Source: Candidatus Heimdallarchaeota archaeon
GTDB taxonomy: Archaea; Asgardarchaeota; Heimdallarchaeia; Heimdallarchaeales; Kariarchaeaceae
Direction: 5' to 3'
DNA length: 21,099 bases
Assembly: GCA_015523565.1 (NCBI GenBank)
Contig: WAKA01000151.1
Location: 1-21,099 of the forward strand
Part shown: positions 499 through 8,274 of the stretch, piece after piece
How positions within the stretch are numbered: position 1 is the first letter of the stretch
Layout of the letters: each line of letters opens with the position of its first letter
Notes under the pieces: model-generated
Databases searched by the model: none
What the model saw: the letters and a program-made list of their open reading frames with translations, nothing else
Told to the model about the DNA's origin: nothing
Made by a program: the position numbers and the translations under genes

Positions 499-555
499 AC
501 TTTCTCCATATTTCATGAGCCAATATTTTTGTATCAATCTTTCGGACATGGAATA

Positions 556-885
556 ATGACAGATGCAATTGTCAAAATGGATGATTCCAATTTTGAAAAT
601 GTTTTGAAGACGCATGAAAAAGTGATTGTAGACACTTGGGCTGAATGGTGTGCACCATGTAAAGCTATTGCTCCAGTGTTTGAAAAATTGGCAAACACTT
701 ATGGGGATAAACTAACTTTTGCGAAGGTAAATACCGACGAAAACCTAAATTTTGCAAGACAGTTCAAGGTTATGTCGATTCCAACATTTCTTGTATTTGA
801 AAAAGGAAAGCTTGTCAATAGATGGTCTGGAGCAAGACCAGACAAACTGACCCAAGAAGTCAAAAAATTAGCTGGTGACGATTAG
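556..885 (+). CDS. trxA: Thioredoxin
   Basis: 'DTWAEWCAPCK' active site and 'VMSIPT' cis-Pro motif; ATG 556 preferred over TTG 529. Confidence 0.95.
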   Translation: MTDAIVKMDDSNFENVLKTHEKVIVDTWAEWCAPCKAIAPVFEKLANTYGDKLTFAKVNTDENLNFARQFKVMSIPTFLVFEKGKLVNRWSGARPDKLTQEVKKLAGDD

Positions 886-3640: not shown

Positions 3641-3658
3641 TGCAATGATTTATTATAC
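3641..3658 (+). promoter_or_regulatory. Putative BRE/TATA promoter of the SNARE-like gene
   Basis: GCAATGA then TTTATTAT (3649-3656), about 23 nt before ATG 3679, consistent with a leaderless transcript. Confidence 0.45.
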
Positions 3659-3675: not shown

Positions 3676-4407
3676 GTGATGAGTGTTACCCATAAAAAAA
3701 AGGAAAAGAAATCCATATTGAAGAAAATTGGGGAAAAACTAGGAAAGAAGGAAAGTACAGATGATCTTATTGAAGAAACATTGACTGAACTAAAAGACAT
3801 TGTTAGTTCAATGAAAGATGTTTTTGAGGAATTTGACGAGTCATACACAGAAACACTAAAACAGAAAAGAGGGACATTAGGTAAGCTAAAGTCAACACTT
3901 CCTTCTTTTATGAAACCTGATGAGATAAAGAGGGAGGAGAAAAGACTTCAAAAAATAAGGAGAAACAAATCAACTCTTGCGGCACTTGAGGATTCAATTG
4001 CTAAATTGGATATTGCCTTGAGAACCTCCCGAAAGAATTATGAAGAAATTGGAGATGCCTATCTTAATTTAGTGAAAATGGAAGCTGGGGGGAAGGAGGA
4101 TGAAGCGATCAAAAAGGTTGAAGAACGGATGAATCAATTGGAGGGGAATATTGCAGAGGCAATGAGTCAGTTGACTGCACAGATTGGTTTAATTAAAAAT
4201 TCATTGGATAATATGGCGGGACAGTTGGAAGAGCAGGGCGTAATAATAAAGGGGATCGATGAAAAGGTGGATGTGCTGGATTCGAAACTTGATAAGGCCC
4301 AGCAATTGATAAAAGAGGTTAGCAGAAAGATTACAGGGAACCGTGTAATTATTTTAATTGCAATTACAGCCATTTCAACAGTTATTTTAAGTGGAATGAT
4401 AAAGTGA
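3676..4407 (+). CDS. Tail-anchored SNARE-motif (Q-SNARE/syntaxin-like) protein
   Basis: Helical N-terminal region; heptad motif M163-V215 with central Q187 in 'NMAGQLEEQGVIIKGIDEKV'; short basic linker; single C-terminal TM V224-I242; no signal peptide. Start GTG 3676 or ATG 3679. Confidence 0.8.
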   Translation: MMSVTHKKKEKKSILKKIGEKLGKKESTDDLIEETLTELKDIVSSMKDVFEEFDESYTETLKQKRGTLGKLKSTLPSFMKPDEIKREEKRLQKIRRNKSTLAALEDSIAKLDIALRTSRKNYEEIGDAYLNLVKMEAGGKEDEAIKKVEERMNQLEGNIAEAMSQLTAQIGLIKNSLDNMAGQLEEQGVIIKGIDEKVDVLDSKLDKAQQLIKEVSRKITGNRVIILIAITAISTVILSGMIK

Positions 4408-4456: not shown

Positions 4457-5506
4457 GTGAAAAGTATTCCTTTAGACATAGAAAAAACAAAAAATTATCA
4501 AGAAGCAGTAAGAACAAAGAAACTTTTGGAACTATTAAGGTATTATTATCAGACACAAGAAAAATTTGATGAAATGGATCTAGGTGACTTTTCCATTAGG
4601 GACCTCCTTCTTTTCATGAGTGACTATGGATTTCCAAAAAGACAATTCGTTGAAGATGTAAAGCCAATTCTTGATCAGATTAATGAAGAAATAAAAACAT
4701 TGGAGGAGAAACTCAAACTTGCCAGATTAAGGGAAATAGAAGATAAAAACCTCAATTCACTCTTGATAATCCCATCGTGGTCTGAACTTATTGGGCGTAA
4801 AACATTGGGTTTCTATCTTAATAGACCAGTTATAGAAATCAGGAAAGATACAATTATTATGCTTAACAATGAGATAGAGATCGTTTTGGATAAACTTGAG
4901 CAGGAAATTGCCATGATAACTGGACCAGGAATACTATTCACAGAATTTAGTTTGGATAAGGGAAAGTTCATCACAAATGTAAGAGAAATCAATATGCTGA
5001 TTTTGCCGATGGAACTTTTCGAGAAAATGATGAATGCCCCCCCTATTTTTGAAGGGGAAATCCATGGAAGCACAATTAATGAAATGGTGACATTAATTCC
5101 ATTTTCAATTATTGAAGAGGCATATTCCATTCAAGCCATGCTCAGAGGAGTTATTTCAAGAAATATTTTTCTTCCCAACAAACCAGCCATTGATGCATTC
5201 AACAATTTAATTAAAGACACACATTCATTTCATGTAAGTAATGGATACAGTATTTTGTCTGCACATCCAGACTATTTCAACAGATTATTGCTGACAGGAG
5301 ATAAAAACCCCAATGCAATTACAATTGGAGACAGTTCATATTCATTGTCAAGCGCAGGCATAGCGTCAATAGTGGATGGGAGAAAATTATTGAATGAACT
5401 CATTCCAGAAAAATCAAAACAGGAAAATCTTCTTCTGAAAATTCGAGATGTTAAATTCCAATACATCAAAACTGGAGAAAGCCTAATTTACGATTGGATG
5501 CCTTAA
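4457..5506 (+). CDS. Hypothetical soluble protein (349 aa) with an N-terminal coiled coil
   Basis: Long ORF, same strand as the SNARE-like gene and 49 nt downstream; coiled-coil stretch 'ILDQINEEIKTLEEKLKLARLREIE'; no family recognised. Confidence 0.8.
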   Translation: MKSIPLDIEKTKNYQEAVRTKKLLELLRYYYQTQEKFDEMDLGDFSIRDLLLFMSDYGFPKRQFVEDVKPILDQINEEIKTLEEKLKLARLREIEDKNLNSLLIIPSWSELIGRKTLGFYLNRPVIEIRKDTIIMLNNEIEIVLDKLEQEIAMITGPGILFTEFSLDKGKFITNVREINMLILPMELFEKMMNAPPIFEGEIHGSTINEMVTLIPFSIIEEAYSIQAMLRGVISRNIFLPNKPAIDAFNNLIKDTHSFHVSNGYSILSAHPDYFNRLLLTGDKNPNAITIGDSSYSLSSAGIASIVDGRKLLNELIPEKSKQENLLLKIRDVKFQYIKTGESLIYDWMP

Positions 5507-6802: not shown

Positions 6803-6969
6803 ACCTTATGCAAACACGGAATTTATTCTTATTAAACAATATGGAGTAAATAAAATATTAAGCAATGAATTAAAAGGCATTTCTTAAATATATATTTTTC
6901 TGTTTTCCCGATCCTAGTAATCCTACAATCTTTATATTATATATTTTGTTAGACTATAATTGTGATTTC

Positions 6970-8274
6970 ATGGGAGAAAAGAGATTAAAATCAAATCAAG
7001 ATGACGATCTTGTTGCTCAATTGATTGATGAAATTGGCGGCAATAAGCTGACCATTTCGTTTACGAATCCCAAAGCCCCCATATTCCTTAAAAAAAATGG
7101 GAGGGGACGCATTTCATCGATTACTTTCAACAAACCTGCCACAGTTGTTCCATCTTCAATCTTTCATTTCCCTAGTTTAGAAAGGCTTTTCTTGAAAATC
7201 AAACCTAAGGATTCAGTTGAATTGCAGAAATTTGTATCAGGCAATCTGAAAGAGTTTCAACTTGAATTGGTCAATAAAGGTAAGCATGTTAACGGATTGG
7301 AAAATCTAAAATCAGGAAATAATCTGGAATTTGTTAAAATCAAGAACATATTTAAATTGAAATCATCCAACCTTCCACCTGCAAAAAAAACAGTGATACA
7401 GGAATGTACATTGGAACTTAATTCACCAATCATCAGTGAATGGGTGATTCTAGACAATTCGACAATTCAAGGGTCTAAAAATTCTAAGAAGGAACTTGAC
7501 TCAAGAAATTGCAAAGGGTTAAGGATAATCAATACAAGGTTCATGTTGAAACAGCCTCTTTCCAAGTTGTTTTCAGGTGTTAGATCGTTGATTATAGCCA
7601 ATTCAGAATTTTCATACAAAAAACTTGAATTGGAACTTCTTCCATTAAATCAATTGATAATTGAAAATACAGAAATCGATCCACCAAAGTCATTGGCACA
7701 CACAAACCTAGAGAATCTTAGTTTATGCAATTTAAATTGGAAAAGACTCCCCTTGTTACCTCGATCGATTAAATCAATTGTATTAAAAGACCTTCCAGAT
7801 GTTAAGTTGTTCGAATCAATTTCTTCTGATGTCAAGCTTCATTATGAGAACGTGAAAGTCAAAAGCCAAAATGACCTATTGAAAAGATTGAATGGGATAA
7901 TATCAATTAACACATCAAAATTGGTGTGCTATGATGTTATCAAATATTGGCTTAAGTTCATTGATTCATGTCTTTATAGCTCTGCGAATAGAAGTTTAAC
8001 CATAAACAATAAAATGCATTTTTTGCGAAGGGATTTGAGATTCAAAGAAGAAAGAAAACCATCATGGGATGTAAGCCCAATGCCAGGTGAATTTATCATT
8101 ACCCCCATAAAAAACAAACGATATCACTATATAATGTTTGTTTTTTTGGATTTTGACACACAAATTTGGCCAGTGGCAAAGATTGAATTTAAGACACAAG
8201 ATATTAAACCTCTGATCAATGGATTGAAGGCAAAGGATTTTTATGTTGTAGAAGATGAAGAATTCAACATATAA
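6970..8274 (+). CDS. Degenerate leucine-rich-repeat-like protein
   Basis: LxxLxL-type units 'FPSLERLFL', 'NLKEFQLE', 'LNQLIIENTEI', 'NLENLSLCNLNWKRLPLLPRSIKSIVL'; ATG 6970 lies downstream of TATA-like CTTTATAT (TTG 6946 is the alternative start). Confidence 0.55.
   Translation: MGEKRLKSNQDDDLVAQLIDEIGGNKLTISFTNPKAPIFLKKNGRGRISSITFNKPATVVPSSIFHFPSLERLFLKIKPKDSVELQKFVSGNLKEFQLELVNKGKHVNGLENLKSGNNLEFVKIKNIFKLKSSNLPPAKKTVIQECTLELNSPIISEWVILDNSTIQGSKNSKKELDSRNCKGLRIINTRFMLKQPLSKLFSGVRSLIIANSEFSYKKLELELLPLNQLIIENTEIDPPKSLAHTNLENLSLCNLNWKRLPLLPRSIKSIVLKDLPDVKLFESISSDVKLHYENVKVKSQNDLLKRLNGIISINTSKLVCYDVIKYWLKFIDSCLYSSANRSLTINNKMHFLRRDLRFKEERKPSWDVSPMPGEFIITPIKNKRYHYIMFVFLDFDTQIWPVAKIEFKTQDIKPLINGLKAKDFYVVEDEEFNI

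Follow-up and report, generated by a model that had tools for sequence, protein, structure and literature searches.

The window analysed here, a 21,099-nucleotide stretch of DNA (positions 1 to 21,099 of contig WAKA01000151.1, assembly GCA_015523565.1, from a Candidatus Heimdallarchaeota archaeon), carries a gene for a SNARE-like protein that is almost certainly a member of the published Heimdallarchaeial "prototypic SNARE" (HPS) family. The explanation as a whole, that this HPS family member is tail-anchored and that its motif zippers into a four-helix bundle, seems to us very probable. The original prediction for this DNA, made from the letters alone, had described an archaeal tail-anchored SNARE-like protein with a Gln zero layer, of a kind reported from Heimdallarchaeota, and this was borne out by an orthologue, 88% identical, that is itself a published member. 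SNARE-like proteins of Heimdall archaea matter for a major question, namely whether membrane-fusion machinery was already present in the archaeal ancestor of eukaryotes. The argument has been published, through biochemistry (2019/2020) and a crystal structure (2026) of close relatives of the protein described here, so that the present gene contributes no more than a further orthologue, from a hydrothermal-vent metagenome-assembled genome (MAG). The finding is already known, the family having been published and one member crystallised, and it is not a new candidate.

The orthologue in question, RMG36020.1, matches the SNARE-like protein at 88% identity over 242 amino acids (E=3e-150), shares 51 of the 53 residues of the SNARE motif and belongs to the 90% cluster of our representative P0003. 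Neveu, Khalifeh, Salamin & Fasshauer described it among the four Heimdallarchaeota prototypic SNAREs on which the family was founded, and it is 48% identical to HPS2 from LC_2 (bioRxiv 10.1101/810531). RMG36020.1, from a MAG titled "Euryarchaeota/Methanobacteriota archaeon", has the same layer residues, the same linker (SRKITGNR), a tail anchor and the same neighbouring gene for a 349-amino-acid protein (locus L003); it differs by 28 substitutions and by a NUDIX-CBS-TFB-thioredoxin block that is inverted relative to the SNARE/349-amino-acid pair. A word-indexed search of 5.8 billion proteins returned five clusters only, the protein itself and clusters at 87%, 77%, 77% and 51% identity, with RMG36020.1 in the 87% cluster. 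When 1.84 billion representatives were searched exhaustively with a profile, 23 matched at E<=1e-3, and none of these is a eukaryotic SNARE; the best 16 of the 23 are full-length (233-282 amino acids) and the remainder are shorter fragments.

The gene and the parts of its product are laid out as follows.

3679 to 4407, plus strand: SNARE-like gene, 242 amino acids from the ATG at 3679, stop codon TGA at 4405-4407 (from the list of open reading frames and the translation)
3649 to 3658, plus strand: TATA-like box TTTATTATAC, about 20-30 nucleotides 5' of the ATG at 3679 (read from the sequence)
3697 to 3750, plus strand: conserved basic N-terminal motif, residues 8-25, KKEKKSILKKIGEKLGKK, with hydrophobic residues at a spacing of 3-4 and a net positive charge
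3751 to 4083, plus strand: N-terminal helical domain, residues 26-136 (AlphaFold2 [AF2] helices 26-73, 82-120 and 122-136)
4162 to 4320, plus strand: SNARE motif, 53 residues, layers -7 (M163) to +8 (V215), in register with syntaxin-6 (2NPS chain D)
4234 to 4236, plus strand: codon of the zero-layer Gln, Q187 (from the translation; Gln in 19 of 21 relatives)
4321 to 4344, plus strand: linker SRKITGNR, 8 residues (216-223), 3 of them basic (from the translation; xxKLTxNR is kept in the family)
4345 to 4401, plus strand: C-terminal transmembrane helix, residues 224-242, followed by K243 alone (from hydropathy)

The open reading frame at 3676-4407 on the plus strand exists as first described, reading 243 amino acids from an in-frame GTG at 3676, and the residue numbering used here counts from that GTG. 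In the databases, the identical protein and its relatives have 241-242 amino acids and start at the ATG at 3679, so that this ATG is probably the true start rather than the GTG; counted from it, the zero-layer Gln is Q186 instead of Q187. Between the TATA-like box and the ATG no Shine-Dalgarno-like sequence is evident (judged by eye, over few bases), and for this reason the transcript, going by the position of the box, is possibly leaderless or has a short leader.

All 16 layer residues named at the outset, from M163 (-7) to V215 (+8) with Q187 at nucleotides 4234-4236, proved correct, as did the 8-residue linker, the terminal membrane helix and the want of a signal peptide. Segment 224-242 is the sole hydrophobic segment of the protein: its Kyte-Doolittle mean over 19 residues is 2.61, the only one above 1.6, and windows starting at residues 1-200 reach a maximum of 0.65. 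From hydropathy, we read the topology as tail-anchored, without a signal peptide. The gap-free pattern of 16 layers is more than chance. Among the 8,891 stop-to-stop frames of at least 80 amino acids in the 3.57-Mb genome, 5 contain a perfect 16-layer window with a central Gln or Arg, and a C-terminal membrane helix follows only in the SNARE-like frame; relaxing the scan to two imperfect layers brought in polytopic membrane junk only. It is because of this uniqueness, and because the layers are kept in 21 relatives, that we set chance aside.

Conservation within the family was followed in an alignment of 21 members (A2), with identity down to 23%. The 15 hydrophobic layers are hydrophobic in all 21 members. 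Conservation of Q187, named beforehand as a point on which the assignment would turn, was checked in these relatives: 19 have Gln at the zero layer, the remaining 2 having His. The two with His are representatives P0013 and P0018 (GDHGV and EEHGM), in which the other layers are intact. Gly188 and Lys197 are invariant, and a transmembrane domain ends every member. The maximum-likelihood tree of the family splits into two clades, each with support of 100/99, and RMG36020.1 is the sister of our protein (support 97/94). The other major clade includes P0017, whose cluster is labelled Hodarchaeales/Heimdallarchaeota; P0017 has Q183 and F155, the residues given for HPS1 in the 2026 preprint, and is the likely cluster of HPS1.

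Outside the family, the best natural match in the PDB is a eukaryotic SNARE. The single sequence aligns with the SNARE motif of syntaxin-6 (2NPS chain D) over 60 residues, ungapped, at about 27% identity (E=4.9e-4), and the profile of the close clade does so at E=2.1e-4; for both queries, syntaxin-6 is the sole PDB match below E=0.1. In this alignment, Q187 falls on the Gln of ELEEQ, which we take to be the zero layer of syntaxin-6. The published comparison likewise gives syntaxin-6 as the human SNARE closest to HPS proteins, at 20-28% identity (bioRxiv 10.1101/810531). Syntaxin-6, a Qc-SNARE, differs in being part of a QabcR heteromer, to whose zero layer a partner contributes an Arg, whereas our protein has no detectable paralogues with which to build a heteromer. 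Kinship with SNAREs is argued most strongly by published experiments, and further by the exact length and register of the motif, by the topology and by the taxonomic position.

Those experiments concern HPS1 (PWI47941.1, Heimdallarchaeota B3-JM-08) and HPS2 (OLS22354.1, LC_2), the members studied at the bench (bioRxiv 10.1101/810531; 10.64898/2026.10.19.760048). Both resemble the present protein in having an N-terminal helical region, a 16-layer motif with a central Gln, a short linker, a transmembrane domain and a single gene per genome. HPS1 forms a thermostable homotetramer, measured at 34 kDa by size-exclusion chromatography with multi-angle light scattering; its 2.4 A crystal structure of 2026, solved by molecular replacement with syntaxin-6, is a parallel four-helix bundle of 16 layers with four Gln183 at layer 0 and closely resembles SNARE complexes (bioRxiv 10.64898/2026.10.19.760048). 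HPS1 and HPS2 also form mixed complexes with neuronal SNAREs (bioRxiv 10.1101/810531), and HPS complexes resist murine NSF (2026 preprint).

By analogy, one can picture how the present protein might work. It would be inserted into the membrane after translation, and a gene for a Get3/ArsA ATPase is found in the genome (E=7e-87). Zippering of its motif, from the N to the C terminus, would then yield a parallel bundle of four helices whose zero layer is polar and made up of Gln throughout. This would most probably be a homotetramer like that of the crystallised HPS1, and it would pull the membranes, or membrane regions, in which the anchors sit towards each other. By folding back on the motif, the N-terminal helical domain may regulate how the bundle assembles. 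That the protein forms a four-helix bundle is, on the model of its relatives, likely. In the archaeon the bundle may fuse membranes, tether them or only organise them; a true fusogenic role is possible, and here we would lean somewhat to the negative.

A number of observations weigh against the reading of this gene as a SNARE that assembles and acts in this way. The Pfam SNARE models considered were PF05739, PF12352 and PF00957, and none reaches its gathering score for the protein. The cut-offs are 27.1 bits for V-SNARE_C and 26.8 bits for PF05739, whereas the protein attains 13.6 and 15.4 bits, respectively; PF05739 also matches 11 of 14 control prokaryote genomes at E<=1. Over the family, the best Pfam E-values are 7.5e-5 for V-SNARE_C and 4.8e-5 for SNARE; the number of members matched by coiled-coil families (Baculo_PEP_C, DUF1664 and NPV_P10) is as high as for the SNARE models. 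When the 21-member profile is used, the syntaxins score no higher than designed coiled coils (E=1.3e-6) or reovirus sigma-1 (3.2e-4): Stx7 comes at 5e-4, Stx1 at 1.4e-3 and Stx13 at 8e-3, with Stx6 within 1-4 bits of these. For this reason, sequence statistics alone do not separate the HPS family from coiled coils. The notion that a SNARE score would stand above generic coiled-coil controls was borne out in part only: syntaxin-6 alone came below E=0.1 when the query was the sequence itself or its clade profile, but the 21-member profile did not set syntaxins apart; that the evidence for SNARE homology is not above generic coiled coils once the profile is broadened may be a small addition to what is in print. 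The experimental analogy has its own distance to bridge. A homotetramer is known for HPS1 only, and HPS1 lies in the other major clade, its likely cluster (P0017) being 26% identical to our protein overall and at 23 of 53 motif positions. The nearer relative, HPS2, eluted at an apparent size of about 70 kDa, leaving its oligomeric state unsettled (bioRxiv 10.64898/2026.10.19.760048), and fusion activity, in vivo or in vitro, has been shown for no HPS member (literature). Finally, no RNA dataset is listed among the sequencing runs that carry the source DNA.

These scores raise the question of whether we are looking at a tail-anchored coiled-coil protein, for example a membrane tether or scaffold, that is SNARE-like by convergence only. 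Profile scores no better than those of designed coiled coils, the coiled-coil Pfam families just mentioned and the absence of any eukaryotic SNARE from the 23 matches at E<=1e-3 of the exhaustive search are all compatible with such a protein. Convergence would, however, have to reproduce the exact motif length (53 residues, 16 layers), a polar zero layer in the register seen in syntaxin-6 and the shared layout of linker plus transmembrane domain, and to do so in a family confined to the archaeal class held nearest to eukaryotes; it would also have to account for the reported mixed assemblies that HPS1 and HPS2 form with neuronal SNAREs, and for an HPS1 structure so like that of SNARE complexes. 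We regard convergence as improbable. A eukaryotic origin of the DNA itself, by contamination of the bin or by recent transfer, would be another way to find a SNARE in an archaeon, given that SNAREs are otherwise eukaryotic and that those of Legionellales were acquired by transfer (literature). Here, however, the gene lies on a 21-kb contig of even GC content (0.34-0.42) among archaeal neighbours (TFB, CBS and NUDIX genes), has no close eukaryotic match, and has orthologues in syntenic places in other Heimdall MAGs, the related loci deriving from MAGs titled Candidatus Heimdallarchaeota; the family, present in 37 genomes, follows the taxonomy of these genomes. The flanks, the GC content, the related loci and the distribution together lead us to set contamination or recent transfer aside as scarcely credible.

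It is on subtype that the original prediction appears to have been wrong, right as it was in kind. It had cast the protein as a proto-syntaxin of Qa type, with a Qa motif, a closing three-helix Habc domain and an N-terminal peptide that binds a membrane or a Sec1/Munc18 (SM) protein. Sequence comparison does not support the syntaxin (Qa) type, and we consider a Qa proto-syntaxin very improbable. Like the Qa-SNAREs syntaxin 1, 7 and 13, the protein has a tail anchor, an N-terminal helical domain and a Gln zero layer, and the family profile matches all three weakly, at the E-values given above. Qa-specific signal is nevertheless missing: the protein and its close clade match only the Qc-SNARE syntaxin-6, the family profile ties Qa and Qc within 1-4 bits, and Pfam matches among the 21 members spread without preference over V-SNARE_C (Qb; 13), SNARE (Qa/Qc; 11) and Synaptobrevin (R; 4). 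Published phylogenies put Heimdall SNAREs outside all four eukaryotic SNARE types (bioRxiv 10.1101/810531), and HPS1 is able to occupy the R, Qb or Qc position (literature). The argument had leaned on a large -3 and a small +6 layer. The +6 residue, A208, is indeed small, but this position varies in the family (Ala 10, Thr 4, Val 4, Ile 2, Leu 1), and the -3 residue is an ordinary Leu, not the Phe of Qa-SNAREs. The Lys-rich N terminus, proposed as an amphipathic helix, turned out to be a conserved basic motif that can be aligned in 21 of 21 members and has an AF2 predicted local distance difference test (pLDDT) score below 50; its hydrophobic moment (0.37) is attained by 28% of shuffled sequences, and only 6 of 21 members have a moment above shuffles (reached by <=5% of them). 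The Habc models of Pfam (Syntaxin PF00804 and Syntaxin_2 PF14523) are not among the families listed at E<=10 for the protein or at E<=0.1 for the 21 members. As for an SM partner, PF00995 has no match in the 90%-complete genome, a search in which the control genomes were silent too, and SM proteins are reported as not found in Asgard genomes (literature).

The predicted structure bears on the same question. The N-terminal region, expected to be helical, is helical in the AF2 monomer modelled from alignment A2, which has an overall pLDDT of 67.7 and block means mostly of 74-88 for residues 31-110, falling towards residue 136. Helices at 26-73, 82-120/122-136 (with a kink at 121), 141-186 and 194-221 are packed as one long four-helix bundle, in which the N-terminal helices lie on the motif in a way superficially like closed syntaxin, a point in favour of a Qa proto-syntaxin. 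The model, however, gives the N-terminal region two long helices (26-73 and 82-136), and a three-helix Habc is not evident in it. The best fold matches of this model (Foldseek E=0.03; VIA Z=10.9) are designed or generic helical bundles only, and syntaxin is not among the PDB fold matches listed by Foldseek or VIA. The break that the model places in the motif at 187-193 probably arose because an oligomeric coil was modelled as a single chain.

Returning to the HPS family, its distribution is narrow. The SNARE-like gene is single-copy, with no paralogue detectable in its own genome (3.57 Mb, 90% complete). Across 400 genomes of the phylum, the family was found in 37, belonging to five genome families only (f1, 10/11; f2, 1/1; f4, 3/3; f5, 20/22; f6, 2/2), and was absent from all families beyond these. 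This distribution agrees with the 2026 preprint, which counts about 50 HPS members, in Heimdallarchaeia only and usually with one gene per genome (bioRxiv 10.64898/2026.10.19.760048). Named relatives are labelled Candidatus Heimdallarchaeota or Hodarchaeales, apart from stray Thorarchaeota and Promethearchaeota labels in one cluster. Within the same order as the source genome, family f3 has no SNARE gene in any of its 31 genomes, several of which are more than 90% complete or consist of a single contig. The absence looks like a lineage-specific loss, and this too may add a little to the published picture. The source DNA itself was found in four DNA sequencing datasets, from one hydrothermal-vent study.

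The only undescribed element of the locus is the gene that follows the SNARE gene, and neighbours of HPS genes are not discussed in either preprint (bioRxiv 10.1101/810531; 10.64898/2026.10.19.760048).

4457 to 5506, plus strand: gene for a 349-amino-acid protein of no known family, beginning 49 nucleotides downstream of the SNARE stop codon; candidate partner

In families f1 and f4, the 349-amino-acid gene adjoins the SNARE gene in 12 of 13 genomes, in three arrangements. Among the related loci, its placement is as follows.

L003 and L004 (SNARE identity 88% and 77%): tandem, downstream of the SNARE gene
L006 (SNARE identity 44%): divergent, upstream
L007 (SNARE identity 38%): tandem, upstream
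L008 (SNARE identity 29%): divergent, upstream
L005 (SNARE identity 51%): 2.7 kb away

One can envision this Asgard-only protein as a dedicated SNARE partner (a chaperone, regulator or disassembly adaptor) that stands in for SM or NSF/SNAP factors, which are missing from Asgard genomes, but we think this rather unlikely. An obligate partnership, at any rate, is disfavoured by three observations: f3 keeps the 349-amino-acid family in 30 of 31 genomes without a SNARE gene, five f5 genomes checked in full have no copy near theirs, and in other Asgard families it forms a domain within open frames of about 380-725 amino acids. Two further f5 genomes do have a copy some 12 kb away from the SNARE gene. 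The protein has no Pfam match. Its AF2 model is confident (pLDDT 85.8; predicted template modelling score 0.80), and no fold match rose above background in PDB Foldseek, VIA wide or ESM Atlas, the best being Z=7.6 for the N-terminal helices only, with TM<=0.27. A complex prediction for SNARE residues 2-222 (A2) with the 349-amino-acid neighbour (A3) scored 0.00 against a mark of 0.32; its controls were not run, and it counts neither way. A conserved neighbour without a structural match could still guide a search for archaeal SNARE partners, and may in that respect add a little.

Elsewhere in the window, genes for a thioredoxin, TFB, a four-CBS protein and a NUDIX protein lie upstream of the SNARE gene, and genes for an oxidoreductase, PHO4/PhoU and a DUF255 thioredoxin-like protein lie downstream. 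An open reading frame of 442 amino acids at 6946-8274 (plus strand) has no Pfam match, and its sole relative, in L003, is weak (28%). Neighbourhoods differ in the Hod-like genus (f5/g14), where a gene with a Roadblock/LC7 domain and then the gene for TFE (TFIIE alpha) stand directly downstream of the SNARE gene. This order was seen in 8 of 8 genomes and in L009 (L009:995-1495; L011-L018), beginning about 90-150 nucleotides after the SNARE gene; all the genomes belong to one genus, and the synteny may for that reason be simply inherited. The gene of about 207 amino acids after the Roadblock gene was considered as a small GTPase, which was ruled out: it is TFE. The thioredoxin gene of the window (529-885, plus strand) also matches the OST3/OST6 family of Pfam (E=1.5e-8), and in the relative at 51% identity (L002/L005, 5185-5954) two such thioredoxin genes stand directly upstream of the SNARE gene.

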